NCBI GenBank assembly: GCA_965208425.1 | Contig: OZ242335.1 | Coordinates: forward strand, 2,119,181-2,183,180 | Reading direction: 5' to 3' | Source: Candidatus Poribacteria bacterium | Lineage (GTDB): Bacteria > Poribacteria > WGA-4E > PCPOR2b | Length of the DNA: 64,000 bases | Shown: positions 1,926 to 55,722 of the stretch, piece after piece | Layout: every line of letters begins with the position of its first letter | Position numbering within the stretch: position 1 is the stretch's first letter | Position numbers and translations under genes: made by a program | Notes under the pieces: model-generated | What the model was told of the DNA's origin: nothing | What the model saw: the letters and a program-made list of their open reading frames with translations, nothing else | Database searches by the model: none

Positions 1926-2099
1926 CCCTGATAAGGGGGATTTAGAGGGTTAAAAGTAAAAAAATCTTGTGTCCTATGCTGAATTTGCATAATAAGCCCT
2001 GTTATTTTCACGTTTCACGCATCGCGTTCGATCTTTGACCGGAGAGCGTATCAACAGTTGCAAACTAGCGTCATTGATTAATATGATTCGGTTGGGGTA

Positions 2100-7553: not shown

Positions 7554-8423
7554 ATGTCGAACACAATCAATCCACCGCAGATCCGACACATGGCAACGCT
7601 CTGGACCCTAACAGACTATGGCGATGCTGATGGAGAATGGTCTATGGATCGGAAACTACGGGAGATAAAAAATGCCGGATTCGACGGCTTTCTTGGTCGA
7701 GTGCCGGTCGTCACCGCCGAGCATGTCCAAGGGTATGGACTGCTGTTTGCAGCGACTGTAGATATAGGGGAGGCAGCGGAGGTCGAGCCAAAACTTAAGG
7801 AAATCAAAGAGGTGGGCGCGGTCTGTGTCAACGTGCAGATGCTCGACCACGACACTTCAACTGAAGAAGCGCTAACGCGGGCACGTCAAGTGATGGACAC
7901 CGCAGGCAAGCTGGAAATGGATGTCGCCATTGAGGTCCACCGCGACACCTGCACCGAAACGCCGGAGAAGGCTTATGCCCTCGCAGAAGGCTTTGAGCAG
8001 GCGGAGGGACGACCGCTAAAGATGACGTGGGATTTCTCACACCCCGCTATTATCAAGCACCTATCGCCACCGTACTGGGATCGATTGGCAGAACGGGTTG
8101 ACCTGATCCAACTCGCCCAGCAGTTCCATTTCCGTCCGTTCAACGGTCACCATTGTCAAATCCCCGCACTCGGTCACGATGGTGAGTTCACGCCGGAGTT
8201 CTTGGACTGGCTTGAATTCGCGGATCGGCTCATCGAAGTCTGGCTGCAAGCGGCGCCACCGGGGCGCGAGATGTTTGTCTGCCCAGAGCAGGGCGCGATG
8301 GGCTATACCCTATCAGTCTTTCCAGATCGATGGAAGGATGTGCAAGCCATTCGAGGCGAGGTAGAGCGGGTTTGGCAAAAGCATATCAAGAACTGGACAC
8401 CACCACAATCGAATGAAACGTGA
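7554..8423 (+). CDS. sugar phosphate isomerase/epimerase (xylose-isomerase-like TIM-barrel family)
   Basis: A 289-aa ORF with a GGAGGT RBS. The composition and the length are typical of AP-endonuclease-2/xylose-isomerase-like TIM barrels. A TTGACA-type promoter-like sequence lies at 7389. Confidence 0.6.
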   Translation: MSNTINPPQIRHMATLWTLTDYGDADGEWSMDRKLREIKNAGFDGFLGRVPVVTAEHVQGYGLLFAATVDIGEAAEVEPKLKEIKEVGAVCVNVQMLDHDTSTEEALTRARQVMDTAGKLEMDVAIEVHRDTCTETPEKAYALAEGFEQAEGRPLKMTWDFSHPAIIKHLSPPYWDRLAERVDLIQLAQQFHFRPFNGHHCQIPALGHDGEFTPEFLDWLEFADRLIEVWLQAAPPGREMFVCPEQGAMGYTLSVFPDRWKDVQAIRGEVERVWQKHIKNWTPPQSNET

Positions 8424-9455
8424 TTCGTAAAACGTGAAAACAATGAGTTCATGGGTTCATTTAGCCCCAGAGGGGCGACATGTCTATAGTACACAGGTAA
8501 ACAAATACCCTAAAGCCCCAGAGGGACGACATGTATATCCCAAGGGTGGAACATAAGAAGACTGAATTAACCAACCGACTAATGAACCGATGAACTCCCC
8601 GATAAATCGGGATCCGAAGTGGCTTGACCGATCCATACCCAGCAGGATGATATATATAAAAAAATACAATGGTTGGTAGGGAACAACGATCGTTGTTCCC
8701 TACGAGTTGGAACGTAGAAGTGCGTATATTTCGTAGGGAACGGTGATCTCCGTTCCATTTGTTAAATGTCAACAGAACCTAGTACTCTGTCAGGCAAATT
8801 ATGCTTGTGTATATGGATTGGAAGCAAACAATAACATATTAGGACTTACGCACTTCAGTAGTGAACAACGATCGTTGTTCACTATGGGCTTTTCTATGGA
8901 GTCTCTGTTGTAGTTGCCCGATTTATCGGGCGTTGTTGGGCGTTGGTGCGGCGATAAATCGCCGAACTACAGGATTTTGAGCGTTCAACTGCGTAAGTCC
9001 TGATATATAATAGCTGCAAAACTTATATGACTGAGTACTAGTGCTCAGTCAGATAAGTTTTACAATTATAGGACTTACGCATTCCAGATTGTAGTTGCCC
9101 GATTCATCGGGCGTATCGGGGCAGGTCCCGATTTATCGGGATCCTCGCTTCGCGGGAGATGCCCCTCCCACACACCGCTCAGTGCCCGCTAAAGGGGGCG
9201 AAAGGGCTTTGACCGTTCGGCTGGGCAAGTCCTGATATGTTATTGTTTGCTTTCAATCAATATACACAAGCATAATTTGCCTGACAGGGTACTAGTTGAT
9301 AAACCAAACGCTAGAAAGCAATCTATTAGGCGGGAATTAGAATTCCCTCTTACACTACGCAAAGTATACGGGGTGAGGCGTACCCTTCCGAATCATGACT
9401 TGCTTCGCTCCAATTGTACAAACTTTAGTAAAAAACTCAAAGGAGATTTTCTTTA
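8424..9455. repeat. 1-kb non-coding repeat nest (MITE/REP graveyard)
   Basis: It contains CCCCAGAGGGGCGACATGTCTATAG x2 with a conserved 23-bp spacer. It also holds GTAGGGAACAACGATCGTTGTTCCCTAC palindromes, a partial direct copy (8738-8850) and a full inverted copy (9020-9300) of the 1575-1925 element, and an 80-bp perfect-ish palindrome at 8990-9075. No ORF has protein-like composition. Confidence 0.85.
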
Positions 9456-19293: not shown

Positions 19294-19577
19294 TAGGCAC
19301 GCTCTGTGTGCCGTAACCTGCCCCCATTTCCGTAGGTCGGGCATCCCCCGCGGGATCCTCCCGGACTTGTCCGGTGCTTCGTAGGGAACGCAGATCTGCG
19401 TTCCATTTTTTTTACGTATTACGAATTACGTATTATACTTCATTAACCCCAGTTGCTTTGAATCCCGATCCTATCGGGGCAGGGCGGTATGTTTATAGAA
19501 TACCAGCGATCTAAATCTTCTCAAGCCCCAGCGGGGCGACATGTGTGTAGAACGTCATCCAAAAAAGGAAACGACAA

Positions 19578-21298: not shown

Positions 21299-21581
21299 CG
21301 GGACCGGATACTTATACTTTTTAGTAATAACCAATGGTGCTAGTTTGCAGCTGTTGATAACGTGATACGTGAAAAGCATTGGTTCATCGCTTCATTTAGC
21401 CCCAGCGGGGCGACATGTGTATAGCACACAGATAAACAAATACTCTAAAGCCCCAGCGGGGCGACATGTGTATCCGAAGGGTGGCACGCAAGAAGAATGG
21501 ATGAACTCTTGAACAATGTGGAAGCGATTTTCTCACTAGCTAGCATCAAAGGTTAATAAACGTTTTCAAAGGATTACAAAA

Positions 21582-30277: not shown

Positions 30278-31621
30278 GTGATGAAGTACAACTGTCAACG
30301 AACGAAAAGCGAACTAATAAAAATGTACAAACGGTATAACAGTTATAAGGAATCCGGATTCGCGTGGCTGGGGGAGATTCCGAGTCATTGGGAAGCGTCC
30401 ACGATCAATGCTCTAACAAAGGTTGTAAGTCGAAAAAATAAACCGAGCGAGCCATTGCTTTCTGTTTACAGGGATTATGGAGTTATTCTGAAAAGTTCAA
30501 GAGATGATAATTATAATAAGCCCGGACAAGATTTAAGTGCCTACAAGTTTGTTAAGCCTACGAATCTAGTCCTAAACAAGATGAAAACGTGGCAAGGGTC
30601 GCTTGGTGTCTCGGAGCTTCAGGGAATTGTGAGCCCTGCATATATCACGTGTGAGTTAGACATCTCAAATGTATTTCCAAAGTATTTGCATTATCTACTG
30701 CGATGCCACAATTACATTTATGAGTATAACAGATTATCGTATGGCGTAAGAACTAACCAGTGGGACATGAGGTACGATGATTTTAAGAAAATACCTGTGT
30801 TTTTGCCATCGAAGCAAGAACAACATGCCATTGCCGCCTTTCTTGACCGCAAGATTACCGAAATCGACCGCTTCATTGCTAGTGAAGAGAAGCTCATTGC
30901 CCAGTTAAATGGGCAGAGAGCTGTCATTATCAACCATGCTGTTACAAAGGGACTTGACTCGGACGTGCAAATGAAAACGTCGAAGGTTAAGTGGATTGTG
31001 GAGATGCCAAAACACTGGACAATTACAAAATTGAAATATACTTCCAACATTCCTGTGACTTATGGTCTTAATATTGAGGCAGATAGATATACTACAGAAG
31101 GAATCAGATTGATTAGAATTACTGATATTGATGAAAAAGGTGGTCTCCGAAAAAGAGGGGTTTATCTGCCTGAAAACTGTGTTCCTCGAGAGCAGATGCT
31201 TAATGGTTATGATTTGCTTTTGTCTCGTAGTGGCGCAACGGTGGGAAAATCCTATTTGCACCTTGAAGCAGGGCAATACACTAGTGCAGGCTATCTGGTT
31301 AGATTTAACTTCGGTGATTATTACACGTCTAAGTTTATTTATTACGTAACACAATCACACTTTTATCGGAATTGGCTTGAGCAACAGATAATTATAGCGA
31401 CAATTCAGAATGTTAATGGCGAAAAGTATTCAAATTTTCAACTCCCTATTCCTTCGCATCAAGAACGGAAACATATTGTCAACTTCCTCAACTACAAAAC
31501 TAAACAGATCGACGAGTTTGTATCCAAAGAACGCCAAAAAATCGAGCTTATCAAACAATACCGCCAAGTCCTCATCTCTCAAGCGGTCACCGGAAAAATT
31601 GATGTGAGAGGGACAGTATGA
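30278..31621 (+). CDS. hsdS: Type I restriction-modification system specificity subunit S (two target-recognition domains)
   Basis: A 447-aa, AT-rich ORF of about 38% GC. A duplicated TRD architecture is separated by conserved coiled regions (...EKLIAQLNGQRAVII... and ...ELIKQYRQVLISQAVTGKIDV). The start is uncertain: 30278 or 30323. Confidence 0.85.
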   Translation: MMKYNCQRTKSELIKMYKRYNSYKESGFAWLGEIPSHWEASTINALTKVVSRKNKPSEPLLSVYRDYGVILKSSRDDNYNKPGQDLSAYKFVKPTNLVLNKMKTWQGSLGVSELQGIVSPAYITCELDISNVFPKYLHYLLRCHNYIYEYNRLSYGVRTNQWDMRYDDFKKIPVFLPSKQEQHAIAAFLDRKITEIDRFIASEEKLIAQLNGQRAVIINHAVTKGLDSDVQMKTSKVKWIVEMPKHWTITKLKYTSNIPVTYGLNIEADRYTTEGIRLIRITDIDEKGGLRKRGVYLPENCVPREQMLNGYDLLLSRSGATVGKSYLHLEAGQYTSAGYLVRFNFGDYYTSKFIYYVTQSHFYRNWLEQQIIIATIQNVNGEKYSNFQLPIPSHQERKHIVNFLNYKTKQIDEFVSKERQKIELIKQYRQVLISQAVTGKIDVRGTV

Positions 31622-31676
31622 TTAACCCTCCCTAGGTTGATTTTGACAACTCGGCCTACAAGTGTAAGGACAAAAA

Positions 31677-34658
31677 TTGATGAATACAACAGACATGCGC
31701 GAGCGAGGTTTTCAGAAATCCATTGCGGGATACCTCACCCAAACCAACGGCTACCGAGAGACGAAATCAGGAGACTACAATACAGAATTCTGTGTCAACA
31801 GAGCCCAATTGCTGGAGTTTATCAAAAAAACCCAAGAAGACGCTTACGAACTCATTCAGAAAAGGGGTGAGCGGGAGTTTTTGGTACGTTTAGATGAAAA
31901 AATTGAAAAGAGGGGAGTTGTCGAGGTCCTCCGCAAAGGAATCAAACACTTCGACAAAACCGTTCGTGTTTTCTACACGCAACCTGTATCGGAGCTCAAC
32001 CCTCTGGATAGCGAACGGTACAACGCCAATATCTTCTCTGTAACGCAGGAATTGATTTATAGCGAAAATAATAACAACGAGCTAGACCTTGTTATTTTTA
32101 TTAATGGTTTACCAATCATCACAATGGAGTTGAAGAACGGCTATACTAAGCAGTCCGTTTTTAACGGCATCCGTCAATATCAGAATGACCGTGACTCCAA
32201 GGAGAAGCTATTCAACCTCGCCAGATGCCTCGTCCACTTCGCTGCCGATACCGACTTGGTCTATATGACAACGCATCTGAAGAACAAACACACCCAATTT
32301 TTGCCATTCAATAAAGGGCAGAACAATGGGAAACCTACCCCCCCTTACGGCGCAGGCAACCCCGTCAACCCAAACGGTGAAAAAACACACTATCTTTGGG
32401 AGGAGGTGCTTACCAAAGATAGCTTGAGCAATATTATTGAGAGGTTCGCCCAAGTGGTTGTCGAAAAAGATGAGGATACCCAAGAAACAGCAAGAAGACT
32501 AATCTTTCCAAGATACCATCAACTCAAAGTCGTTCGGAATTTGCTATCACACGCCAAAGAGAATGGTGTCGAGCAAAAATACCTCATCCAGCATTCGGCG
32601 GGCTCCGGTAAATCCCATTCTATCACGTGGCTTGCCCACCAACTTGTCGGTTTGCATGACCAAACCAATACCCAGAACATCTTTGACAGTGTAATCGTTG
32701 TTACGGATCGAACTGTCTTGGATGAGCAGATCCGAGAACACATCAAGGATTTTGCACAGGTAAAAGATGTCGTCGCTGCTATCACCGGAGTTGGAGACAC
32801 TAAGACTCAGCAACTTGAGTCTGCCATCGTGGACCAGAAAAAGATCATCACTACAACGATACAGACGTTTCCATTCCTCGTTGACAAAATCGAAAAGATG
32901 GAAGGTGCTAACTTTGCGATTATCATTGATGAAGCCCACAGCAGTCAAAGTGGGGAATTTACTGCCAAAATGAACACGGTTTTAGCGAACAAAGAGCCGA
33001 ACGATGAAGATGAGGAAGTCGAAGAGACGTGGGAAGACACAATCAACGCGCTAATCAACGCTCGCAAGATGCTCACAAATGGCAGCTATTTCGCCTTTAC
33101 TGCAACGCCTAAAAGCAGGACACTTGAAACCTTCGGTCAAAAAGGAACAGATGGCAAATTCTATCCCTTCCATCTCTACTCAATGAAGCAGGCGATTGAA
33201 GAAGAGTTTATTCTTGACGTTTTGCAAAATTACACGACATACAACTCTTACTATAAGCTCATCAAAACTGTTGAGTACAACCCTGATTACGACATCAAGA
33301 GTGCCCAGAGAGAACTCCGCCATTACGTTGAAAATCACGAATACGCAATCACCCAAAAAGCCCGAGTCATGATTGACCACTTTATGCAAGAAGTAAAGCA
33401 CCGCATTCACGGTCAAGCAAAAGCAATGGTCGTCACGAGCTCCATCCCGAATGCGATTAAATACAAAGAGGCGTTTGACACCTACCTAAAGGAACTTAAC
33501 TCATCATATAAAGCGATTATCGCCTTTTCCGGCACGAAGCAGCACAAGAGTATTGAAGTACGCGAATCCGACCTCAACGGATTCCCGGATAACGATAACG
33601 ATATCCGCAAACATTTCAAAAAAGAGGAATACAAGTTCCTTATCGTCGTCGAGAAATTCCAAACCGGTTTTGACCAACCTCTTTTACACACGATGTATGT
33701 TGATAAAAAGTTGGCAGGTGTCCATGCTGTTCAAACCTTATCTCGATTGAATCGAGCGTATAAGCCCCATAAGAGAGATACGTTTGTCTTGGATTTTGTG
33801 AATACGGTTGACGACATCAGAGAAGCGTTTGAACCCTATTACACAACCACTATCTTGACCGAAGAAACCGACCCCAACCGGCTCAACGATCTGCAAGAAG
33901 TTTTGGAGGGTTATCAGGTTTACTCAGAAGTAAAGGTGAAAGAATTCTGCATGTTGTATCACAGTGGTGCGGAGAGGTCTGAAGTCGCTCCAATTCTGGA
34001 TGCTGCTGCCCAAATCTTCAAAGACGATTTATCTGAGGAAGAAAAGATTGATTTCAAAACCCAAGCCAGATCATTTGAGCGAACTTATAGTTTTCTAGGG
34101 TGTCTCCTTGACTTCAATAATCCCTATTGGGAGGAGTTGTGGTGGTTTCTGAAATTTCTCATTCCCAAGCTCACAATTGACAATACCGAGGACTTTGCTG
34201 CCGACATTCTGGATGAGGTTGATATGGAGAGCTACAGAGTTTCGATACAGGGGATGACAAACATTGCGTTGGAAGAAGAGGATAGTGAGGTTGCTCCGCT
34301 TTCAATTATCGAAAGTGGTCAACAGCGTGATCCTGATCTCGACAGCTTGGAAAATATCATTGAAGCGTTCAATCAGCGTTTCGGAGACATTGAATGGGAG
34401 GATAACGATAAGGTTCGCAGAATCTTGAGTGAAGAAATCCCAAATGAGCTGAAAGGCAACAGTGATACGATCCAGACAATCCAGAGCTCAGATCCGCAGA
34501 ATGCGAAAATCGCCTCTGACAGGAAACTTGCTGAATTTATGCGAGCGTTGTTGTTCACGCACACGGAGATCTATAAGAAATTCACCGATGATCCTGACTT
34601 CAAGAGTCAATACGAAGATTTTGTATTCGATATCCTGCGGCAACAGAGAGATCGTTAG
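31677..34658 (+). CDS. hsdR: Type I restriction enzyme endonuclease/helicase subunit R
   Basis: A 993-aa ORF. The N-terminal PD-(D/E)xK nuclease is ELDLVIFINGLPIITMELKN. SF2 helicase Walker A is HSAGSGKSHSITW and the DEAH box is IIIDEAHSSQ. The C-terminus is typical of HsdR. Confidence 0.9.
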   Translation: MMNTTDMRERGFQKSIAGYLTQTNGYRETKSGDYNTEFCVNRAQLLEFIKKTQEDAYELIQKRGEREFLVRLDEKIEKRGVVEVLRKGIKHFDKTVRVFYTQPVSELNPLDSERYNANIFSVTQELIYSENNNNELDLVIFINGLPIITMELKNGYTKQSVFNGIRQYQNDRDSKEKLFNLARCLVHFAADTDLVYMTTHLKNKHTQFLPFNKGQNNGKPTPPYGAGNPVNPNGEKTHYLWEEVLTKDSLSNIIERFAQVVVEKDEDTQETARRLIFPRYHQLKVVRNLLSHAKENGVEQKYLIQHSAGSGKSHSITWLAHQLVGLHDQTNTQNIFDSVIVVTDRTVLDEQIREHIKDFAQVKDVVAAITGVGDTKTQQLESAIVDQKKIITTTIQTFPFLVDKIEKMEGANFAIIIDEAHSSQSGEFTAKMNTVLANKEPNDEDEEVEETWEDTINALINARKMLTNGSYFAFTATPKSRTLETFGQKGTDGKFYPFHLYSMKQAIEEEFILDVLQNYTTYNSYYKLIKTVEYNPDYDIKSAQRELRHYVENHEYAITQKARVMIDHFMQEVKHRIHGQAKAMVVTSSIPNAIKYKEAFDTYLKELNSSYKAIIAFSGTKQHKSIEVRESDLNGFPDNDNDIRKHFKKEEYKFLIVVEKFQTGFDQPLLHTMYVDKKLAGVHAVQTLSRLNRAYKPHKRDTFVLDFVNTVDDIREAFEPYYTTTILTEETDPNRLNDLQEVLEGYQVYSEVKVKEFCMLYHSGAERSEVAPILDAAAQIFKDDLSEEEKIDFKTQARSFERTYSFLGCLLDFNNPYWEELWWFLKFLIPKLTIDNTEDFAADILDEVDMESYRVSIQGMTNIALEEEDSEVAPLSIIESGQQRDPDLDSLENIIEAFNQRFGDIEWEDNDKVRRILSEEIPNELKGNSDTIQTIQSSDPQNAKIASDRKLAEFMRALLFTHTEIYKKFTDDPDFKSQYEDFVFDILRQQRDR

Positions 34659-35078
34659 GAGACTGGTGGGGCCTATTTTATAGTGAATTCTAAAAATAAA
34701 TAGACGTCAAAAGTAGTAGGCACACGGCGTGTGCCCTAACTGTGTGCACAAGGTTGCTGACCTCGCTTGTTCATAGTGTCTAGTGAATTCTGAAATCTAC
34801 TATAAATTGCTGTGGAATAGGTACAGAACATTGGTTGAGTTTCTTCAAGATTTTCCAAGAACAAAAAGACGAAAAATCTATCAACGCTGAACTGAATAGA
34901 CTAAGGACTTTAGTAACTGGTATAGATAGGGAAACCGACCACCAAATAACTGACGCATTGGAAAAATCGTGTCGGGTATTGATGATCTGTTGTATCAAAG
35001 ACAAACATAGGATTTGGCGTTGTGAACTTAATCGCACTCCACACAGAACCCAACGTAGAATAACCTCAAAGAGAAAAA

Positions 35079-35515
35079 CTATGAGCACAGACAAGGAAAA
35101 ACTCCAAAAGTATGAAGAAGATACTGAACAAGAAATAAAGGACGAAATCAACGAACTAGACAACAGAAAAGCACTAACCGCTCAAATAACATGTACATCC
35201 CTGCTAATCATATCTTCGATGATGATAGGATACACAGCCAAACTTCCAACAACCACATGCCTAACAAAGCTAACATTCACAGCATTTACATCAACCATCA
35301 TACTAACCATAATCTCACTTATCATTAGCAAGATAAAGCTAGACAAAGACATCAAAAAATACATTACAAAGATAAAAGAAAGAGACTTTAAGCCCGAAGA
35401 AAAACCATACAATGAAGACGCATTATCAAGAACAGGAGAATACCTATCGGTATTATCAATAGTAACATTCCTAACCGGCATAATCACAGCAACAATAACA
35501 ATAATCTTAACATAA
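35079..35515 (+). CDS. hypothetical small membrane protein (low-complexity, A-skewed); coding strand uncertain
   Basis: MSTDKEKLQKYEEDTEQEIKDEINELDNRKALTAQITCTSLLIISSMMIGYTAKL... has 3-4 predicted TM helices. The 226-aa ORF-track extension begins with TTG at 34835. Overlapping minus-strand ORFs of similar length exist because of extreme strand compositional skew. Confidence 0.3.
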
Positions 35516-35530
35516 TCCCCAAAGAAAGGA

Positions 35531-35719
35531 TTGAGCATGAACACGAAAGAAAAGGATACACCACGAGACAAAGAAGACCCCATACGAGAGCATGGCATAC
35601 CATCCAGAACCCCCACCATACCAATAACAGAGCCACCAATACCAACAGATACTCCTGAAGAAGCACCAGAAACCCCACAGCCCGATAACCCACCACCTGA
35701 AGAACCAGAAAAGGAGTAG
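35531..35719 (+). CDS. hypothetical small acidic Pro/Glu/Thr-rich protein
   Basis: A 62-aa ORF with an AAAGGA RBS: MSMNTKEKDTPRDKEDPIREHGIPSRTPTIPITEPPIPTDTPEEAPETPQPDNPPPEEPEKE. It is low complexity and may not be coding. Confidence 0.25.
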   Translation: MSMNTKEKDTPRDKEDPIREHGIPSRTPTIPITEPPIPTDTPEEAPETPQPDNPPPEEPEKE

Positions 35720-35767
35720 CAAACACAATCTCAAGTCATAAACTTAGCAACGCCTAGGATTTAAACC

Positions 35768-36157
35768 TTGACCTATGGAGATTTCAAAATGCAACTCGAA
35801 GATTATTTTGACTTTTTGTCGGAGGATGATATTCGGATTAAAGACACGCGCATCGGCATTGAGAGCGTTCTATACGAGTATATCCATCGCGACCAGGAGC
35901 CAAAAGCCATAGTGCAGTGCTACCACACGCTTTCTCTGGAACAAGTTTACGCAACGATTCTCTATTATCTGCACAACAAAGAAAGGGTCGGTGCGTATTT
36001 GGCAGATTACCTCGAATACTGTCGAAAGTCGAAAGAGGACTACGAGAAAAATCTACCACCTGTAGTGGCGCGACTCCGACAACTCAAAGCAGAACGTGAA
36101 TCAGGGGAAGCGAGAATTGTTCATTCGCCCACCGAACCGGGCGACATAATGCCCTAA
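35768..36157 (+). CDS. DUF433-like protein (putative antitoxin-like DNA-binding fold)
   Basis: A 129-aa ORF. IRIKDTRIGIESVLYEY...QCYHTLSLEQVYATILYYLHNKERV resembles the DUF433 core (RI.GTRI.V..VL... P.Lt.eqv.aAL.YY). Confidence 0.4.
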   Translation: MTYGDFKMQLEDYFDFLSEDDIRIKDTRIGIESVLYEYIHRDQEPKAIVQCYHTLSLEQVYATILYYLHNKERVGAYLADYLEYCRKSKEDYEKNLPPVVARLRQLKAERESGEARIVHSPTEPGDIMP

Positions 36158-37411: not shown

Positions 37412-37562
37412 AGAAACCTCGTTCTATACAAGTGCGAAGAGAAACCGAGTTTTTTCTTGAAAACTCGGTTTCTTTGCACTATTTCTTAACATGAGCCATT
37501 GTTTTTACGTTTCACGCATCACGTTTCACGTTATCAACAGCTGCAAACTAGCACCATCGGTT

Positions 37563-40155: not shown

Positions 40156-40692
40156 ATTATGCTGGTGAATCTCCATTTACCAATTTAGACTGGGCAATCG
40201 CGTGTGAAAGATATTGAAACCAAAGATGGTAGGGGCAGCCCTTGTGGCTGCCCTTGCGTCAAAAGCCTACTTTGCACCAATCCAGCAACACTGTGGCTGC
40301 TACATTTACTTATCCCTATCCTCTGTGGAGCCTGATGCCTGAGAGGCATAGGGATTTCACACCTAACTTCTTATCCTGTTAATCCGTTAATCCTGAAAAT
40401 CCTGATTCAGACAACAAGCCGCGCCATCCGCCGAATCCGCGATTCAGACAATACCGATGAATTGCCATCTGCCGATCCACAGGAAAACCCTTGCCCAATA
40501 CCGCAAAATCGGTTATCCTGTTTCCTGCTCGACACGTTTTATACTTTCTTTTTAATGAACCCCGAGATTGGGTGTCCAAACTCGACAGCGCCAATGAACC
40601 AATGAACTAATGAACCAATGAACCTGACCAACGTTCTTCACGTTTCACGCTTTGTACATTCTTTTTCCATAAGCCATAGGAGACAACAACCG

Positions 40693-43451: not shown

Positions 43452-43582
43452 GCTTAATGCTAATGGAAGTTACACACTCTAACCCCAATCTTATCGGGAT
43501 TCTATGAATGAAACGTGAAACGTGATGCGTGAGAGGCTTGTTTTATCACGTGTTTATTTGCCTTGAGCGTTCAGCCTCGGTC

Positions 43583-44521
43583 CTACTTTGTTACCTTTAT
43601 TTTCCCTAAAAGCGTTGGAGTCAATTCCTGTGGCGAGACAGATAGGGTGGCATTCCGTTCTTGTGGGGCAAAATCATCGCCTGCCCCGTAGGTCAGCTGT
43701 GTCAACCTCCTATCAGCGAGCCGGAACTGAAAAATCTTCCATTGATTGTTGTCCTTCCATTTACCAGCAAAGAGAACCGACTTGCCATCGACAGAAAAAG
43801 CGGCGGAATGATAAACCATCTCTAGCCTAGCTGGGACAGGCACCCGCCGCGATCTAATAATTGCTCTCTTAAATTGGTTAAGCGTGGCAATAACGAGCGT
43901 GTCCTTATCTGCCGGCATGTCCGCTTCTGCATACAGAAGCTGCTGCCCATCGGGCGACCACCCTTCCAAAATCATCGCTCTTGCTATCTCGGGGTGCTCT
44001 GCAAGCCGCGCCGGTGCTCTGCCCTGTGCGTTTATCACATAAATAGAGTAGCTACCAAAAGCAAATTGGGTTCCATCGGGCGACCACTTCGGTTTGTCAA
44101 TAAACCGTCCATGTCGTGTGATCTGTTTTACATTACTGCCATCGGCCTCCATCACGAACAGGGAAGACGGGTTCTTGCGCCTGCTGGTAAATGCAATTCG
44201 TGAACCGTCCGGCGACCATGTAGGAGATGAATCAGACGCAGGGTGATTGGTCAGATTGCGTTGATTCCTCCCATCGGCATCCATCAGATATATCTCCTTG
44301 TTCCCGTCTCGATCGCTTTCAAAGGCAATCTGTCGTCCATCGGGAGACCAAACAGGCGAGGAATCGGCAGCCGCGTTAAATGTCAACCGCGCGGGATTGT
44401 TCCCGTTGGCGTTCATAGTATAGATTTCTTCATTTCCCTCCCGATTGGAATAAAAGACAATTTTGCCCCAAAGGGGAGGAGTGACAAGCCAAAGGCAAGC
44501 CACGAAAATATAGATACGCAT
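43583..44521 (-). CDS. TolB-like periplasmic beta-propeller (PD40/WD40-like repeat) protein, paralog 1 of 3
   Basis: A 312-aa ORF with a signal peptide. It has repeated PD40 units (SPVWSPDGRQIAFESDRDGNKEIYLMDADG...). Confidence 0.85.
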   Translation of the reverse strand: MRIYIFVACLWLVTPPLWGKIVFYSNREGNEEIYTMNANGNNPARLTFNAAADSSPVWSPDGRQIAFESDRDGNKEIYLMDADGRNQRNLTNHPASDSSPTWSPDGSRIAFTSRRKNPSSLFVMEADGSNVKQITRHGRFIDKPKWSPDGTQFAFGSYSIYVINAQGRAPARLAEHPEIARAMILEGWSPDGQQLLYAEADMPADKDTLVIATLNQFKRAIIRSRRVPVPARLEMVYHSAAFSVDGKSVLFAGKWKDNNQWKIFQFRLADRRLTQLTYGAGDDFAPQERNATLSVSPQELTPTLLGKIKVTK

Positions 44522-44538
44522 CGTTACACCTCTGATTT

Positions 44539-45483
44539 TTACTTGGTTGTCTTAATCTCACCCCAAAGCGTTGAGGTTAGTTGCTGTGGCGAGACCGACA
44601 GAGGCGAAAGCCATTCGTGTGGGGCAAAGTCATCGCCTCTGCTGTCAGTCAACTGTGTCAACTTCCTATCCGCCAGCCGGAACCGATAAATATCCCAAGT
44701 ATCGGCATCATTGGGTTTACCAGAAAAAAGTATCGACTTCCCATCAGCAGAAAAAGCAGCAGAATGGAAAACTATCTGTAACCGACTTGACACCGGCACC
44801 CGCCTCCATTGGATAATCATTCTCCGTCTGATAGGCTCTAGCGTGGCAACAACGAGCGTGTGTTTGTCTGATGCCAAGGCCGCCTCTGAAAACAAAATCT
44901 GCGTTCCATCCGGTGACCACCCTTCCAAGAACATCGCGCTCTCCACATTGGGACGTTTTGAAACCTTCCACGGCGCTCTGCCCTCAGCGTTGACCACATA
45001 AATAGGACTGTCACCAAAAGCGATTTGCTTGCCAGTCGGCGACCACTTTGATTTGGTGACAAGCCGCCAGCCCTTAACCCCCTTCACATTTCCCCCATCA
45101 GCAGCCATCATAAAAAGGGAGGAAAAACCGTCCGGATTACGTTCGCTGATAAAAACAATCTGTGAACCATCGGGCGACCAGTCAGGATAGGAGTCAACCG
45201 CAAGATGATTGCTCAGATTGCGCGGATTCGTTCCGTCAGCGCTCATCACATACACCTCCATGTTCAAATCGAAATCGCTCTGAAACAGAATCTGCTCCCC
45301 ATCAGGAGACCAAACGGGATAAGAATCGCTTGCCCCGTTGAACGTGAGTCGAATCTGGTGGGTCCCGTCCGATTTCATCGTGTAGATTTCTTCGTTTCCA
45401 TCACGATTGGAATAAAATACAATTTTGCCATGAAGGGGGCTCGTGGTAAGCCAAAGAATCGTCACAAGCAGGAAGTTTCGCAT
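44539..45483 (-). CDS. TolB-like periplasmic beta-propeller protein, paralog 2 of 3
   Basis: A 314-aa ORF with a signal peptide and PD40 repeats. It shares the C-terminal tail [20 protein letters not shown] with paralog 3. Confidence 0.85.
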   Translation of the reverse strand: MRNFLLVTILWLTTSPLHGKIVFYSNRDGNEEIYTMKSDGTHQIRLTFNGASDSYPVWSPDGEQILFQSDFDLNMEVYVMSADGTNPRNLSNHLAVDSYPDWSPDGSQIVFISERNPDGFSSLFMMAADGGNVKGVKGWRLVTKSKWSPTGKQIAFGDSPIYVVNAEGRAPWKVSKRPNVESAMFLEGWSPDGTQILFSEAALASDKHTLVVATLEPIRRRMIIQWRRVPVSSRLQIVFHSAAFSADGKSILFSGKPNDADTWDIYRFRLADRKLTQLTDSRGDDFAPHEWLSPLSVSPQQLTSTLWGEIKTTK

Positions 45484-45492
45484 AGAACACCT

Positions 45493-46464
45493 CTATTTCG
45501 CTGTCTTAATCTCACCCCAAAGCGTTGAGGTCAGTTGCTGTGGCGAGACCGACAGGCGCAGATTCCACTCTTGTGGAGCACCATCTCTGCCCGGACTGTC
45601 GGTCAACTGTATCAGCTGTTTATCAATCAATCTAAAGCGATAGATATTCCTGTTACCCTCCTGTTTGCTACTAAAAAGGATAGACTTGCCATCAGCAGAG
45701 AAACAAAGGTTATGAAAAGGCATCGGTGGCATCTTCACCGGCACCCGTTTGAAAACCTGTTGCGGTTTTGACGGGTGTAGGGAGGCAATAACCGGGGTGG
45801 GCTCAACCGCTATATCATTTACCACCTCTTTATACAAAATCTGTTTCCCATCGGACGACCAGCCGCCCAAAAGTCGCCATGTGTCCGGTATCGTTTCAGT
45901 GACCTGCCATAGGCCCGTGCCATCGGGACGAATGGCAAAGATGTTTCCCGTCTCTGCACCATCGGGACCAATAGGATGCAATTCTGACCCCTCAAAGAGT
46001 ATCCATTGTCCATCGGGCGACCACTTGGGGTCTCCAGCCCCCCAAAACTCTGTCACCTGTTGGACATTGCCGCCATCGGCGTCCATCACGAAGATGTTAT
46101 AGATATGGTCTTGATCGTCATCCTTATACCTCTGAAACGCAATATGATTTCCGTCAGGAGACCAACTGGGCGATTCATCGTCGAAGGAATGGGTCAGCCG
46201 CCGTTGATTGGTTCCATCGGCGTCCACCACATAAATACCACCGCTGTCGTCATGATAGCTATGGAACACAATCTGTCGTCCGTTGGGAGACCAAGCAGGA
46301 TGGGCACCATCTACATCGTTGAATGTCAGCCGTGTCAGGTTGCTCCCGTCCGAGTTCATCGTGTAGATTTCAGCGTTTCCACCACGAGTGGAATGAAACA
46401 CAATTTTAGCTTCAAGGGTGTTGGTAGCAAGCCAAAGGCAAGCCACAGCGATAATAATGCGCAT
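45493..46464 (-). CDS. TolB-like periplasmic beta-propeller protein, paralog 3 of 3
   Basis: A TGGAGA RBS favours the ATG at 46464 ([25 protein letters not shown]). The ORF track extends to 46479. PD40 repeats are present. Confidence 0.85.
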
Positions 46465-46981
46465 AATAAACATCTCCATTTACCCATCGCTGAACAAAAC
46501 GCCTAGGCAACATACAAGAACCATGCCAATCTCCGATGCCCTGTCTATTCGGTTTAACAGCGATATTAACCGTGCAAGTGTTCAATAAATGAACAAGAGT
46601 GTTCATGAAATGCCCCCCTTCTAAACCTATCCTCGACCAGTTGGGGATTCAAAGTAACTTGTGGGTCCCCTATTGGATTTATCCGTCTTTTCACGTTTCA
46701 CGCATCACGCATCATGTTTCACGTTTTAACTTTTTTATGGTATTTTACATAAAAAACATATAAAAACATTTGCAAAACTGCGTTGCGTGTGGTATTATTA
46801 ACGCCCGGAATCAACTAGTGAACCTAACTATGGTAAATTAAAAAAATAAGTAGACATTTACCAATAACTCCGACCTACGCGAAGTTTCCCAAGTCCCCCT
46901 GACAAGGCGGATTTAGGGGGTTGGGAGTGTCTAAGTAATTCTAAAATCTACCATAATTAACCTTGTGCACCCGCCCACAAA

Positions 46982-47980: not shown

Positions 47981-48197
47981 AGACATTGGGCATTAAGCAC
48001 ATTATCCTGTAGGTCGAGATTCACATCTCGACACCCAACCATCACGGCAGCATGTGGTAACCCTCGCTCCAGAGGAGCGATATGTCTATAGAATGCCGAG
48101 ACCTCTAAGATCCGCACTCCAGAGGAGCGCAATGTGGATAACAGTCAACAGGATCTAGCAACTACGTTAATATACAGAAGGAGTCAAACAAGAATTA

Positions 48198-50729: not shown

Positions 50730-50864
50730 CGCAAGTTGCTAGTTGATAAACTAAGTGCTGGAAACGGACGCAAGAGTCGGGAATTGGAATTCCCTCCTAC
50801 AAAAAAACAGACTGTAGGAGCGATATCCGAATCGCGACAAGAGACTCAATGTTGAGAAAATAAC

Positions 50865-51113
50865 ATGGCAACAGTTACCCTTGACGAAATTCAACGTGAT
50901 TTTTTGGGCTATCTCCACCGCGTTCAAGCCGGTGAAACGCTTGTCATCATGCAAGTTGATAAACCTGTGGCGACAATGAAACCGATTGAGATGAATCATA
51001 CACAGGAACTTCGCCCTTTTGGCTTGTGTGCGGGCGAATTTCGAGTTCCTGATGACTTTGATGATCTGTTGCCAGAAGAAATTATCAAGCAATTTGAGGG
51101 CAGCAAGTTGTAG
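50865..51113 (+). CDS. Phd/YefM-like type II antitoxin family protein (orphan; no toxin gene follows)
   Basis: An 82-aa ORF. MATVTLDEIQRDFLGYLHRVQAGETLVIMQVDKPVATMKP has the antitoxin N-terminal fold pattern. The C-terminal EFRVPDDFDDLLPEEIIKQFEG tail is typical of this group. It is inserted between sufB and sufD and flanked by repeat clusters (50760-50860, 51120-51300). Confidence 0.5.
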   Translation: MATVTLDEIQRDFLGYLHRVQAGETLVIMQVDKPVATMKPIEMNHTQELRPFGLCAGEFRVPDDFDDLLPEEIIKQFEGSKL

Positions 51114-51337
51114 AGAATAACAATCGTTGTTCCCTACGATGCTGATTCTTATCGGGGCTGCTCCGTTAAGCCCCAGCGGGGCGACATGTGTGTTTTTGCT
51201 CCAGAGGAGCAGCATGTCTATAGAAGGACAATACGTCCAACGCTCGCGCTCCAGAGGAGCGCAATATGTATAGCAAGGGTGAATCACCACAACCCGAAGT
51301 CCCGGCGGAGCTTGAGTTACAATATCGTTAGATAGAG

Positions 51338-52747
51338 ATGGAGACTGAATTGCCTTCAGAGTTAAAACACAATCCCCCTTACGAGGTTCAAGCGGGGGAT
51401 TTTTCACGAGAATTTGTAGAACATATATCCAAAACGCAGGACGAACCCCGTTGGATGCGTGAACGGAGACTGGCAGCATATGATGTTTACGACCAATTGC
51501 CAATTCCCAAGACACCCAATGAGGATACGTGGAGGCGGACGACGGATATGCACGTCCAAGACTATTGGCGTCGTACTGACCTTCGTCGGTTCAAGCTGGA
51601 TCAGTATCATCCCATTTCGCTTTCGCCTTCCGAATCCGCCGAACATGCCCCACTGCCTGATGGGCTAGCAAATCGGCTGGCATCGTTGAATGGAGAGCCG
51701 GGGCAGATAGTTCAGCAGGACGGGATCGTTCGCAATGTTGCGTTGGCAGAAGACCTTGAACGTAAGGACATTTACTTCGCAGATATGAATACCGCGTTGA
51801 AGGAACGCCCTGAGCTGGTCGAATCCTATTTTATGACCAAAGCCGTGCCGGTCGATTGGAATAAGTTCGATGCGCTCCACGGTGCGTTTTGGCAGGGTGG
51901 TTATCTGTTACATGTGCCACAAGGCACCGTCCTTGAAGTTCCATTGCGTGTGTTTGTCGCACTCTCTGAGGCGGGACGAACAGATCTATCACACACGCTA
52001 ATCATTGCCGATGAGGGTAGTCAAGTCACTGTTCTGGAAGAGCAGCTCTCTACAGATGCGGATACGCCCGGATTGCACTGTGGGGCTGTCGAAATTCTTG
52101 TCGCAGACAATGCCCATGTGAACTACGTCGGGGTACAAAGGTGGAATCTCCGGACTTGGAATTTTTCGACACAACGGGCGATTATCGGGAGAGACGCACA
52201 GTTGCGTTGGGCATCGAGTGCTTTAGGGAGTCGTGTGAGCAAACTCAATCAGTTATCGGTGTTGGAGCAGCCGGGCAGTCACGTCGAGATGCTCGGATTG
52301 ACCTTTACACACGCCCGGCAGCACCTCGATATTCACACATATCAGGACCATCAAGCGCCTCACACAACAAGCGATCTGCTCTATCGAACTGTCCTCAAGG
52401 ATCGCTCGCGGAGTGTGTGGGCGGGCATGATCCACGTCCACCCCGGTGGTCAACATACCGATGCCTATCAGAAGAACGATAATCTGATGTTAAGCGACCA
52501 TGCCCGCGCAGACCCCCTGCCCGGACTCGAAATCTTAGCCAGTGAAGGCATCCGTTGTACACACGGTGCTACAGCAGGTCCTATCGATAAAGATCAGGTG
52601 TTTTACCTCATGAGTCGTGGCTTGTCTCACGACGCAGCAGAACGGTTGATTGTTGACGGCTTTTTTGAACCCGTGATGCAGCGGATTTCGTTAGAATCGG
52701 TTCGGACGCAGCTTCAGCAATCGATCGATCACAAATTAGCGATGTAA
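51338..52747 (+). CDS. sufD: Fe-S cluster assembly protein SufD
   Basis: A 469-aa ORF, paralogous to SufB ([16 protein letters not shown]...). Its position after sufB supports the call. Confidence 0.85.
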   Translation: METELPSELKHNPPYEVQAGDFSREFVEHISKTQDEPRWMRERRLAAYDVYDQLPIPKTPNEDTWRRTTDMHVQDYWRRTDLRRFKLDQYHPISLSPSESAEHAPLPDGLANRLASLNGEPGQIVQQDGIVRNVALAEDLERKDIYFADMNTALKERPELVESYFMTKAVPVDWNKFDALHGAFWQGGYLLHVPQGTVLEVPLRVFVALSEAGRTDLSHTLIIADEGSQVTVLEEQLSTDADTPGLHCGAVEILVADNAHVNYVGVQRWNLRTWNFSTQRAIIGRDAQLRWASSALGSRVSKLNQLSVLEQPGSHVEMLGLTFTHARQHLDIHTYQDHQAPHTTSDLLYRTVLKDRSRSVWAGMIHVHPGGQHTDAYQKNDNLMLSDHARADPLPGLEILASEGIRCTHGATAGPIDKDQVFYLMSRGLSHDAAERLIVDGFFEPVMQRISLESVRTQLQQSIDHKLAM

Positions 52748-52912: not shown

Positions 52913-53221
52913 GGTACAAAAGGCCACTTTTACAAAAAAACTTTGTTGGGTTTCACTCTATCCGTCTATAAGCAGGTGTTGTTGGACGACCAAGCCTCTA
53001 TTGGGCTTGAGAGGGATTCCCGTTTAACCGTTCAACCCAACCTACGGACTGTTAAATGTTAACAGAACCTAGCATTTAAGAGGTCATTTAACAGGAACCG
53101 ATTAAATACACTAGTTCATCAGTTCAGAGGTTCATCCATGAACCTATAAACCCCTGACTGTTTACGCATCACGTTTCACGTTTCATTCTTCACACTTTTC
53201 AAAATTGAAAGGAACCTAACA

Positions 53222-53596
53222 ATGAGTCAGCCAAAAATTACCGCTTATATGAAACCTGTTTGCGGTTGGAGCAATGGTGTCCGCGCGATCTTCCAAAAAT
53301 ATGGTTTGGAATACGACGATCGCGACATTATCAACAACGCAGATAACTATCGTGAAATGGTCGAGAAGAGTGGTCAGCCACTTCAACCGACAATTGAGAT
53401 CAATGACGAGATTATCGCTGATGTCAGCGGCGACGAAGTCGAAGCATACCTCATCGCAAAAGGTTATGTCCAACAGAGTGATGCCGAGGCTGGCGTGCCG
53501 ACAGACGCGGCATGTGAAGACCACGGCGAAACAGTCGATGTCTCGTTCTCAGGTGGGAAATTGACCAACTGGGCAAGCAACCTGTTTTCAAAATAA
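53222..53596 (+). CDS. glutaredoxin-like thioredoxin-fold protein with C-terminal extension
   Basis: A 124-aa ORF with an AAAGGAA RBS. KITAYMKPVCGWSNGVRAIFQKYGLEYDDRDI resembles the glutaredoxin/NrdH fold, with a CGWS active-site variant. Confidence 0.5.
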   Translation: MSQPKITAYMKPVCGWSNGVRAIFQKYGLEYDDRDIINNADNYREMVEKSGQPLQPTIEINDEIIADVSGDEVEAYLIAKGYVQQSDAEAGVPTDAACEDHGETVDVSFSGGKLTNWASNLFSK

Positions 53597-53599
53597 ATC

Positions 53600-53660
53600 C
53601 GTAATGCGTAAAACGTGAAACGTAAAAACATTCATTGTTACGTTTTACGTTTTACGCCTT
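53600..53660. promoter_or_regulatory. dyad-symmetric heptad-repeat element (GCGTAAAACGTGAAACGTAAAAAC / GTTACGTTTTACGTTTTACGC) between the grx-like gene and sufS
   Basis: This is an imperfect ~21-bp-arm inverted repeat built from (A/T)ACGT(G/T)AA heptads. Related heptad clusters lie at 2006-2030, 37503-37535, 43508-43532, 46688-46727, 53161-53192 and 55663-55700. Confidence 0.55.
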
Positions 53661-53691
53661 CATCCTTGGAATCCCGATGCACGCCCAACCC

Positions 53692-54939
53692 ATGAACAAT
53701 TTACTCAATGAACTTGATATCGAAGCTATCCGAAGCGATTTTTCCATTCTACAAACGGAAAACGATCTACCCTTGATCTATCTGGATAGCGCCGCGACCT
53801 CCCAAACACCGGATTGCGTCATTGAGGCGATGGATGCATATTACCGGACCTATAACTCAAATATACATCGGGGCATCTACCGTATTTCCGAGGAAGCGAC
53901 CGCCAAGTATGAGGAGGCGCGAAAGCGGATCGGACGGTTCATCAATGCCCGCCGTTCCAGCCAAATTATCTTTACACGAAACACCACCGAATCGATCAAC
54001 TTAGTTGCATATAGTTGGGGGAGTGCCAATCTCCGAGAGGGCGATGAAATCCTTGTCACGGTAATGGAACACCACAGCAACCTCCTACCGTGGCAGTTGC
54101 TATCCCAACGCACCGGAGCGAAGCTGCGATTTATTGAAATCACCGACGAAGGGGTATTGCAGCTTGATGATTTGGAAACGCTGTTGACAGAACGCACCAA
54201 GATAGTTGCAATGACCCACGTTTCCAACGTCCTCGGTACTATCAATCCCGTTCAGGAACTTATAGCCGCTGCCCACGGTGTCGGCGCGAAAGTGCTGATT
54301 GATGGTGCACAGAGCGTGCCGCATTTTGACGTGGATGTACAGGAGCTAGATTGCGATTTTCTCGCTTTTTCAGGGCACAAAATGTGCGGTCCCACCGGCA
54401 TAGGCGTTCTGTACGGCAAGTCAGACCTCTTGGAGGAGATGCCGCCATTTTTGGGCGGTGGTTCGATGATCCGCTCCGTCCAGCGTGAAAGTTCGACCTA
54501 CGCCGATGTGCCAGCCAAATTTGAAGCAGGGACGCCAGCCATTTCAGAAGCAATCGGACTTGGAGCTGCCGTAGACTATCTTGACAACGTTGGATTAGAA
54601 GCGATCTTTGTGCATGAGCAAGAGTTACTTGAATATGCACACCAAAAACTGGTCGAAATTGAGGGCATTACCATCTATGGTCCCAAGCCCCGGCAAAAAA
54701 CAGGAGCAATCACATTTAACTTGGAGGGGATCCACCCTCACGATTTAGCAGGCGTCTTAGATACGGTTGGAGTAGCAGTCCGCGCCGGCCACCATTGTGC
54801 ACAACCGCTCATGCATAAATTTGGGGTTATCGCTACAGTCCGCGCAAGTTTCTACCTTTACAACAAACTTGACGAGATCGACACCCTGCATGAAGGATTG
54901 CTGAAAGCCCAACGTATGCTGACACGGAGACGAAGATGA
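53692..54939 (+). CDS. sufS: cysteine desulfurase SufS
   Basis: The ORF track starts at 53635; a more likely start is 53692 (MNNLLNELDIEAIRSDFSIL...). Conserved motifs are PLIYLDSAATSQTP, HHSN, the SGHKMCGPTGIGVLYG PLP-lysine motif and the RAGHHCAQP catalytic Cys loop. Confidence 0.9.
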   Translation: MNNLLNELDIEAIRSDFSILQTENDLPLIYLDSAATSQTPDCVIEAMDAYYRTYNSNIHRGIYRISEEATAKYEEARKRIGRFINARRSSQIIFTRNTTESINLVAYSWGSANLREGDEILVTVMEHHSNLLPWQLLSQRTGAKLRFIEITDEGVLQLDDLETLLTERTKIVAMTHVSNVLGTINPVQELIAAAHGVGAKVLIDGAQSVPHFDVDVQELDCDFLAFSGHKMCGPTGIGVLYGKSDLLEEMPPFLGGGSMIRSVQRESSTYADVPAKFEAGTPAISEAIGLGAAVDYLDNVGLEAIFVHEQELLEYAHQKLVEIEGITIYGPKPRQKTGAITFNLEGIHPHDLAGVLDTVGVAVRAGHHCAQPLMHKFGVIATVRASFYLYNKLDEIDTLHEGLLKAQRMLTRRRR

Positions 54940-55645: not shown

Positions 55646-55722
55646 ACCTTTGGTGCTAGTTGGTTTCACGTTTTACGTTTTACGCATCACGTTTTACTCT
55701 CAGTTGTGAATGGAGGATTCTG

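Follow-up and report, generated by a model that had tools for sequence, protein, structure and literature searches.

We found that a 64-kb stretch of a Candidatus Poribacteria chromosome (6.8 Mb), called the window below, carries a family of short, degenerate heptanucleotide arrays in its non-coding DNA. These heptads are probably the Poribacteria version of the intergenic heptanucleotide tandem repeats of other bacteria and no regulator site, and an inverted pair of them between a glutaredoxin gene (grx) and sufS is probably a selected RNA stem-loop.

Genes in the window were placed by an approximate gene map. Two consecutive WWYAYGY units match 19 times in the window, compared to 0.28 ± 0.45 times in dinucleotide-preserving shuffles, none of which reached 19, and the period-7 arrays reported by Tandem Repeats Finder (2-5.4 copies) coincide with the heptad sites. 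At all sites the unit is a 7-nt word repeated head to tail, with the consensus (T/A)T(C/T)ACG(T/C), or WTYACGY, of which T..ACG is the invariant part. An earlier note on this DNA had listed nine sites (2006, 37503, 40631, 43508, 46688, 53161, 53600, 55663 and 60755), all of which carry WTYACGY arrays, and its count of three clusters within the suf region holds; the CACGTG-like core that it had proposed is not required. Three further sites lie at 21360-21373 (-), 8418-8438 (-) and 19411-19435, the last a weaker ATTACG array. Array density in the window is about one per 5-6 kb, and all strict arrays (10/10) are non-coding (p ~1e-7, for a non-coding fraction of 20.7% on the approximate map). Dispersed copies with a non-coding bias were seen over the 64 kb and about 60 kb of relatives, from which a genome-wide count is extrapolated. 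The non-coding DNA of the window is a mosaic of short repeat families, with the heptads one among a dozen. Rfam at the gathering threshold gave no match anywhere in the window, and no description of the heptad family came up in full-text literature searches, whether for repeats in Poribacteria or for the repeat strings themselves.

The arrays turn over among related Poribacteria. We compared syntenic loci from two TARA contigs (L001 and L002), a 6.10-Mb genome (L003) and a 6.28-Mb genome (L004/L005), whose identity to the window is 89-92% for sufS DNA and 63-76% at 4-fold degenerate sites. Both the presence and the unit number of the arrays vary at these orthologous loci. The grx-upstream array is found in L002; L001 and L003 have a small hairpin in its place, and L004/5 have ATGAAC octamers. 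L004/5 share the sufT-upstream array, which is absent from the 12-nt gap of L003 and replaced by another repeat in L001. The array at 60752, upstream of a gene (60875) coding for a 153-aa protein, numbers three units in L005 but is missing from L003, and the isomerase-upstream composite of four octamers and two heptads has three and one in L003. The MoaA-upstream array keeps its position in L003, L004 and L005, with 5, 3 or 5 units in changed order. Promoter hexamers and the AT-rich block adjoining the arrays are conserved throughout the relatives.

Of the two explanations offered by the earlier note, the second, a simple-sequence expansion, was essentially right; unit number and order differ among relatives. 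The first, an operator of an uncharacterised regulator, ran into the outcome that the note had named beforehand as refuting, namely loss of the arrays from orthologous promoters of close relatives; in the comparison of orthologous suf genes that it had called for, the arrays are not kept before grx and sufT. Degenerate head-to-tail arrays would change in unit number, with slipped-strand mispairing as the most likely mechanism of gain and loss, and would persist only in non-coding DNA, among many small repeat families. In the accompanying octamer repeats, the near-identical L004 (9490-9510) and L005 (9480-9520) differ by a 16-nt two-unit indel, which is direct evidence of unit-wise slippage.

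The inverted repeat between grx and sufS

The earlier note had described two arrays at 53600-53660 as an inverted repeat just before sufS. The dyad is confirmed by a repeat finder: its arms, which are 88% complementary and 6 nt apart, occupy 53603-53628 and 53635-53660 (in the region 53597-53665, the pair reads GCGTAAAACGTGAAACGTAAAAAC / GTTACGTTTTACGTTTTACGC). The 5' arm consists of three reverse units (GCGTAAAACGTGAAACGTAA) and the 3' arm of three forward units (TTACGTTTTACGTTTTACGC), separated by the loop AAACATTCATTG. Starting 9 nt after the grx stop and ending 20 nt before the sufS ATG, the dyad is present as described but belongs to the grx 3' end as a sense-strand hairpin, not to a sufS promoter.

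The 86-nt sense RNA (53594-53679) folds at -29.6 kcal/mol (z = -6.7) and its antisense at -26.9. Trimmed to the hairpin, with a predicted 20-bp stem, the values are -27.4 kcal/mol for sense versus -24.2 for antisense. Orthologues of the heptad dyad give about -27 to -34 kcal/mol for the trimmed hairpin and up to -36.6 with flanks, and the sense hairpin is the stabler one in 5/6 orthologues (-29.8 vs -14.6 kcal/mol in L003, -33.6 vs -22.9 in L001, -25.3 vs -18.9 in the metagenome contig L126). In an alignment of six sequences, 96.7% of the cells of the 20-pair stem are paired and four pairs show compensatory double changes; the covariation score was reached in none of 500 shuffles. On the sense strand, imperfections are skewed to the wobble type, with 11 G·U cells versus 3 A·C cells. 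Between the window and L001/L003/L005 the arms are 90-92% identical, which exceeds the neutral rate (63-76% at 4-fold degenerate sites), and the loop region is 58-67% identical between the window and L001 and L003.

All close relatives carry the dyad, and so do two less closely related metagenome contigs that encode Grx, L126 (83% protein identity) and L129 (71%); in L129 both arms have switched to ATTACGC units. In L128, L130, L131/132 and L133 (Grx 69-77% identity, sufS downstream) there are no heptads at the grx|sufS junction; these loci have unrelated strong hairpins there, and the region folds at -23 to -32 kcal/mol. A stem-loop immediately 3' of grx has thus been maintained, and at grx|sufS the repeat has evidently been recruited as an RNA hairpin under selection.

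The dyad is most likely an intercistronic RNA stem-loop that would act as a stabiliser, or as a partial attenuator or processing site. As with stabilisers of the repetitive extragenic palindrome (REP) and bacterial interspersed mosaic element (BIME) type, the hairpin lies 3' of a cistron in an operon, here the sufBD-grx-sufSU-Rieske-sufT cluster. An inverted pair inside a transcription unit would fold as an RNA hairpin, with grx|sufS as the clearest case; this hairpin may protect the upstream grx message from 3' exonucleases, or may cause partial termination or processing, and either effect would uncouple grx from sufSU expression.

The dyad does not fit an intrinsic terminator of the stem-plus-U-run kind: it is not among the terminator-like sites of the window, its tail reads CCUUCAUCCUUGG, and, with the U-run missing, a classical terminator is not supported. 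We infer an intercistronic RNA element, and not a full terminator or an operator, because there is neither a U-run nor room for a promoter before sufS. An unlikely variant of the terminator explanation is that heptad dyads lack a U-tract yet work as intrinsic terminators in both directions; the strict purine-arm-first order would then exist because no other order leaves the U-rich arm, with its weak hybridisation, on the 3' side. Strong hairpins and the 50:1 polarity described below speak for this, the L126 orthologue has UUUU directly after its stem, and L128 has a canonical terminator-like hairpin at the same junction. However, full termination 20 nt upstream of sufS would shut off sufSU, divergent gaps show no depletion of dyads, and the genome also has canonical hairpin-plus-U elements, such as the one at 37440-37475.

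That element, AAACCGAGTTTT..AAAACTCGGTTTCTTT (A-run, stem, T-run), recurs in L004/L005 (12018-12052) and in L128 (~505-545), where it takes the place of the heptad dyad at grx|sufS. Another dispersed element, AAGTCCCCCTGA(T/C)AAGGGGGATTTAGGGGGTT..TAATTCTAAAATCTACCATA, is found in the window (1920-1951 and 46891-46965) and in L001 (2880-2960 and 4985-5045) and explains why the grx|sufS gap of L001 and L002 is longer by 170 nt.

Polarity of the arrays across phyla

A scan of a species-representative genome collection for four consecutive WTYACGY units (~44 bits) returned at least 120 stretches, and the cross-phylum counts that follow are among the matches listed. The phyla represented include Chloroflexota (Anaerolineae, Chloroflexia, Caldilineaceae, Thermoflexales), Vulcanimicrobiota, Verrucomicrobiota, Acidobacteriota, Calditrichota, Planctomycetota, Nitrospirota, Desulfobacterota and Poribacteria, with 145/167 arrays non-coding by a crude open reading frame (ORF) heuristic. 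Heptads elsewhere often adjoin arrays of other heptamers (GGGTCAG, AGTGCTG, GAGTGGC, GTGAAGG, CATTGCT, CCCTATC). WTYACGY arrays also occur in 48 viral stretches, compared to at least 120, 77 and 88 for control heptamers of equal degeneracy and composition (WTYAGCY, TWYGACY and WTYCAGY, respectively). Since the controls are equally or more common, the cross-phylum occurrence reflects a general abundance of 7-nt repeats and not a conserved binding partner, and a specific motif conserved across phyla is ruled out.

Among inverted pairs no more than 120 nt apart, the order 5'-(CGTGAAA)n..(TTTCACG)n-3' occurs 50 times and the opposite order once, in a dubious case; the ratio is 44:0 with the strict unit and 7:0 at viral loci. 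By crude gene calls, 26 inverted pairs lie in co-directional, 10 in convergent and 8 in divergent gaps, against a background of 420/113/116. As this distribution equals the background, the polarity is not due to gene arrangement, and a preference of dyads for terminator or promoter contexts is ruled out. The gene on the side to which TTTCACG points is the nearer one for 121/174 arrays, and for 82/112 single arrays (p ~1e-6), a polarity toward the nearest ORF, whatever the orientation of that ORF, as in the GGGAATC family of the short tandemly repeated repetitive (STRR) and long simple sequence repeat (SSR) class (PMC4692102). If the TTTCACG-reading strand points to the nearest gene, two arrays in one gap would therefore form 5'-(CGTGAAA)n-loop-(TTTCACG)n-3'. 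A period-7 scan blind to repeat family found the purine-rich arm first in 69/99 pairs, each heptamer family having its own consistent order.

Two causes of the polarity are possible. The reverse unit, which contains GTG/ATG and TGA/TAA in all frames, might harm 5' leaders, and only the observed order would make the 3' arm of a hairpin the U-rich one, which hybridises weakly.

Two further inverted pairs belong to other heptamer families. In the related viral contigs L230 (71-213), L246 (1877-2019) and L258 (14525-14667), a tRNA-like T-arm (GGTTCGAATC) lies between inverted TTTCAGC/GCTGAAA arrays, which are in the opposite, pyrimidine-arm-first order. Before grx in the more distant contig L133 (2895-3000) there is an inverted pair of TTATCAG.. 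/ ACTGACA.., a heptamer family similar to the TAACTGA repeats of Beggiatoaceae and cyanobacteria.

Several points weigh against reading the heptads as simple repeats with one selected hairpin. Among 22 dyads in co-directional gaps across phyla, the sense strand has the advantage in 12 and the antisense in 10; a general RNA-level selection on all dyads is ruled out by this count, and because of it the function proposed for grx|sufS cannot be generalised to the others. The high arm identity at grx|sufS could stem from homogenisation toward the family consensus and not from selection on pairing, and the G·U events are not independent because the orthologues share ancestry. Transcription through the dyad and its effect on RNA ends are predictions from sequence, and simple termination there is unlikely given the lack of a U-run and a sufS start 20 nt further on. 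Because the MoaA-upstream array keeps its position, it may have some role at the DNA level at that site. Finally, the gene maps behind the cross-phylum statistics are crude ORF heuristics.

Array sites and regulatory alternatives

The sites in the window are collected in Table 1. The earlier note had placed almost all arrays directly upstream of start codons. This is true of the only four sense-oriented arrays that end 19-43 nt before a start (40637, 53161, 53644 and 55665), but six arrays follow stop codons closely in reverse orientation (2007, 8418, 21360, 37504, 43513 and 53606); those at 46690 and 60752 lie upstream of conserved sigma-70-like promoters.

Table 1. Heptad arrays, associated elements and suf-region genes in the window.
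Feature	Position (nt)	Strand	Context
Two to three heptads (TTTTCACGTTTCACGCATCGCG) and companion repeat	2005..2083	+	Just after minus-strand WelO5-like stop (2100)
Reverse heptads (AACGTGATTCGTAAAACGTGAAAA)	8418..8438	-	Overlap stop of gene 7554-8423; reverse octamers and REP-like element next; within 146-nt repeat common to 21361-21506
Weaker variant TTTACGT ATTACGA ATTACGT ATTA	19411..19435	+	
Companion repeat and two heptads	21325..21375	-	27-62 nt after HTH-protein stop (21298); 95% identity over 44 nt to 37519-37562, inverted
Four-unit array, then companion repeat TATCAACAGCTGCAAACTAGCACCAT	37503..37562	+	31 nt after minus-strand DAO oxidoreductase stop (reverse in DAO sense); 92 nt upstream of SHMT start
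Isomerase-upstream composite: (CCAATGAA)x4 octamers, then TTCACGT TTCACGC	40591..40650	+	43 nt upstream of ATG 40693 (sugar-phosphate isomerase/epimerase-like)
Reverse array GAATGAAACGTGAAACGTGATGCGTGA and single forward unit ATCACGT 18 nt off	43506..43551	-	Convergent gap, acetyltransferase stop 43451 / PD40 beta-propeller stop 43583
MoaA-upstream forward array, 5 units	46688..46726	+	~45 nt upstream of -35 box; MoaA-like radical-SAM ATG 46982
Sigma-70-like promoter TTGCAA-17-TATTAT, TG extension	46770..46798	+	Kept in relatives; MoaA-upstream array falls outside it
ATGAAC-type octamer repeats	53115-53150		Precede grx-upstream heptads
grx-upstream forward array TTTACGC ATCACGT TTCACGT TTCA	53161..53185	+	Ends 37 nt before grx ATG (53222)
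Heptad dyad	53606..53657	+	Between grx stop (53594-53596) and sufS ATG 53677
sufT-upstream forward array, 4-5 units	55663..55697	+	Between Rieske stop (55645) and sufT ATG (55723)
Two heptads (CTTCACGTTTCACGA)	60749..60765	+	~65 nt upstream of conserved promoter-like TTGAGA-17-TACACT, gene 60875
sufC-like	48198		
sufB	49317		
sufD	51338		
Glutaredoxin	53222-53596		
sufS	53677-54939		
sufU/NifU-N	54936		
Rieske	55331		
sufT-like	55723		
GBBH-like	56074		

The sense arrays before starts, in the window and likewise at many genes in other phyla, must often fall in the 5' untranslated region (UTR) since they end so close to the start codon. We therefore weighed an RNA platform, in which arrays in 5' UTR RNA bind a post-transcriptional regulator (S1, Csp, CsrA-like or HutP-like) that reads ACG every 7 nt. 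By inspection, start and stop codons are missing from the forward unit, whereas GTG/ATG and TGA/TAA occur in the reverse one, and a parallel proposal exists for the TAACTGA repeats of Beggiatoaceae (PMC4679880). Nevertheless, many arrays lie after stops or upstream of promoters, the arrays are dispensable in close relatives, and no candidate protein was found, which leaves a platform of this kind quite unlikely. We give about as little credence to a broader proposal, that T..ACG heptads are a cis-code for a conserved nucleic-acid-binding protein, be it ParB in the role of a nucleoid protein on tandem half-parS (GTTTCAC) units or an RNA-binding protein that recognises (U)UUCACG at 7-nt intervals in untranslated regions. 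If it were true, the arrays would form a genome-wide architectural or post-transcriptional network, and the purine-arm-first polarity would be a functional requirement and not a by-product.

It is distinctly improbable that the tandem heptads are operator or enhancer-like sites of a DNA-binding factor, possibly one linked to Fe-S clusters or the molybdenum cofactor. Their strictly intergenic location, the placement of several just upstream of starts or promoters, and the MoaA-upstream position kept in four lineages are compatible with such sites. So is an excess of forward arrays less than 60 nt from a start (44 vs 20 reverse, among the matches listed across phyla), and TTCACG and TTTACG match the -35 hexamer at 4/6 positions by inspection. 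Yet at about 90% nucleotide identity in sufS the arrays come and go in orthologous promoters (they are absent before grx in 3/4 lineages, before sufT in 2/3 and before gene 60875 in 1/2), and unit number and order are not kept even where the position is. Half of the window arrays follow stops, one of them in a convergent gap, and the dyads show the background distribution over gap types. The neighbours of the arrays in the window are unrelated enzymes and hypothetical proteins without functional coherence (ADH, WelO5-like, HTH, amine oxidase, SHMT, DAO, acetyltransferase, beta-propeller, MoaA-like, Grx, SufS and SufT). Because the neighbours are unrelated and arrays follow stops as often as they precede starts, an operator is unsupported, and the array density is too high for a specific regulon; binding sites for a suf-specific or other specific regulator are not supported. 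To our knowledge, and as the earlier note had it, the heptads do not resemble a Fur, IscR, SufR or RirA box. As a -35-like element TTCACG is weak, with inconsistent -10 partners by inspection. Phase-variable (contingency) SSRs, which are long perfect tracts in promoter spacers or reading frames of surface or virulence genes, are also a poor match: the units are degenerate, the tracts have 2-5 units and the genes are housekeeping genes.

Highly improbable is the remaining explanation, that the arrays are tandem half-parS sites (GTTTCAC) that recruit nucleoid ParB, with head-to-head pairs absent because they would create ectopic parS centromeres. A half-site may read GTTTCAC or GTTCCAC. In P. 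aeruginosa and several other species, ParB binds GTTTCAC as half of parS (PMC7022226); this heptanucleotide is spelled by consecutive TTTCACG units, it occurs 21 times in the window (16 intergenic) against ~8 expected, and no parS-forming orientation was found, but only 13/27 units yield it (others give GTTTTAC or GCATCAC), the heptads vary where parS is fixed and are invariant where parS is free, sub-families unable to make parS are equally polar (ATTACGC 7:0, CATCACG 4:0), and control heptamers are equally common in viral contigs. The full parS, the 16-bp palindrome TGTTNCACGTGAAACA, has no match in the window with up to 3 mismatches, and there are no head-to-head pairs. Avoidance of parS is likewise an unlikely cause of the polarity, given the equal polarity of sub-families unlike parS.

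Other repeats accompany the heptads. Octamer arrays (CCAATGAA/ATGAAC) are found at 40591-40624, 53115-53150, 8441-8460 and 21379-21396, usually on the gene-distal side. A companion repeat of ~25-35 nt, TATCAACAGCTGCAAACTAGCACCAT(T/C)GGTT, is fused to heptads at 2049-2083 (+), 21325-21359 (-) and 37532-37562 (+), with a partial copy at 55650-55662. Every copy sits with a stop codon on one side and reverse heptads on the other, and on its opposite strand it has a promoter-like TTGCAA-N18-TATGAT/TACTAA aimed back into the 3' end of the gene. At least ten short hairpin repeat families crowd the non-coding DNA of the window (~21%). These include GGTAGGTGCGGTTTCCAACCGCACCG (7272-7301, 12185-12210, 15497-15522, 57811-57840), CCGTAGGTTGGGTAGAGCG..AACCCAACAT (12131-12166, 15414-15449, 18385-18420), TGTAGGTCGAGATTCACATCTCGACA (7345-7371, 12271-12296, 48006-48033, 62723-62750) and AGCCCCAGCGGGGCGACA (4757-4779, 6287-6310, 19524-19550, 21398-21424, 51169-51192). 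Several begin with GTAGG, recalling the GTAG head of REP elements recognised by RAYT transposases.

Three minus-strand PD40 beta-propeller genes (43583-46479), between the acetyltransferase and the MoaA-like gene, are absent in L003 (4061-4315), where the repeat clusters that flank the site are adjacent; the ~3 kb indel is bounded by repeat-rich DNA. L004 and L005 show two of the three PD40 genes at the locus edge. We considered and rejected the arrays at 43513 (-) and 46690 (+) as insertion-site marks of this three-gene cassette; the two are independent, since 43513 forms a small dyad of its own. The sufB-sufD gap (50730-51337, 608 nt) consists of REP-like repeats (50768-50838, 51104-51276), and the 254-aa ORF at 50751-51515 (-), without a Pfam hit, is probably spurious. 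Within the gene at 60875-61336, the coding sequence is tandemly repeated at 61020-61225 (periods 21 and 75 nt), and its 153-aa product is coiled-coil-like, with many weak Pfam coiled-coil hits. Positions 28000-36000 have a G+C content of 0.41-0.44, compared to ~0.50 elsewhere, and an AT skew of up to 0.23, and may be horizontally acquired DNA.

Comparison with known repeat classes

The main points of interest are the near-absolute polarity of inverted pairs across phyla, the nearest-gene rule and one conserved case of an RNA hairpin. New here are the phylum, for which the searchable literature holds no prior description of such repeats, the independent multi-phylum support for a polarity rule drawn from Xanthomonas and Nostoc, and the repeat hairpin at grx|sufS, in whose place sister lineages have unrelated hairpins. 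Apparent promoter motifs in repeat-rich genomes, those of Poribacteria among them, may be simple-sequence families, and a comparison of orthologous gaps tells these from real regulatory sites. Ever since the STRR were first reported, heptanucleotide intergenic repeats have lacked an established function, and grx|sufS offers a concrete example of a possible use.

In malEFG and similar operons, REP hairpins stabilise the mRNA upstream of them. Like the REP/BIME and REPIN elements of Enterobacteria and Pseudomonas, the heptads are a dispersed intergenic repeat that forms hairpins between cistrons and at 3' ends and occurs in inverted doublets. Unlike the heptads, REPs are unique imperfect palindromes of 20-40 nt that owe their mobility to RAYT transposases.

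The heptads are closer to the STRR of heterocystous cyanobacteria and the long SSRs of Mrazek et al. (2007), for which polymerase slippage was proposed and among which heptamers are the commonest class (as summarised in PMC4679880). As far as that summary goes, they share short head-to-tail 7-nt arrays, dispersed copies, a non-coding bias, a variable unit number and the lack of a known function, and the heptads differ in their degenerate unit, (T/A)T(C/T)ACG(T/C), in their occurrence in Poribacteria, Chloroflexota and other phyla, and in being often combined with octamer arrays and REP-like hairpins.

TAACTGA direct repeats, found in marine Beggiatoaceae, cyanobacteria and Bacteroidetes (MacGregor 2015, PMC4679880), likewise occur in 2-6 copies in scattered phyla, mostly forward and shortly before starts, with no pattern in downstream gene function (PMC4679880). 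In contrast to the heptads they overlap the ribosome-binding region and form 169 direct sets versus 1 indirect (PMC4679880), whereas heptad inverted pairs are common and half of the heptad arrays follow stops.

The polarity finds its counterpart in the GGGAATC / GGGGA(C/T)T heptamers of Xanthomonas and Nostoc, most of which lie on the non-coding strand before ORFs and on the coding strand after stops, whichever way the ORF runs (Rehm et al. 2015, PMC4692102). Both families are intergenic, vary in length at shared loci, have unrelated neighbours and can form stem-loops from inverted pairs, and both obey the rule that the purine-rich strand is the coding strand after stops and the non-coding strand before starts (PMC4692102). 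Under-representation between divergent genes, reported for GGGAATC repeats (PMC4692102), is not seen for the heptads with our crude gene calls. Unlike the GGGAATC repeats, the heptads have no G-tracts, and so no G-quadruplex potential, and no preference for four units was seen.

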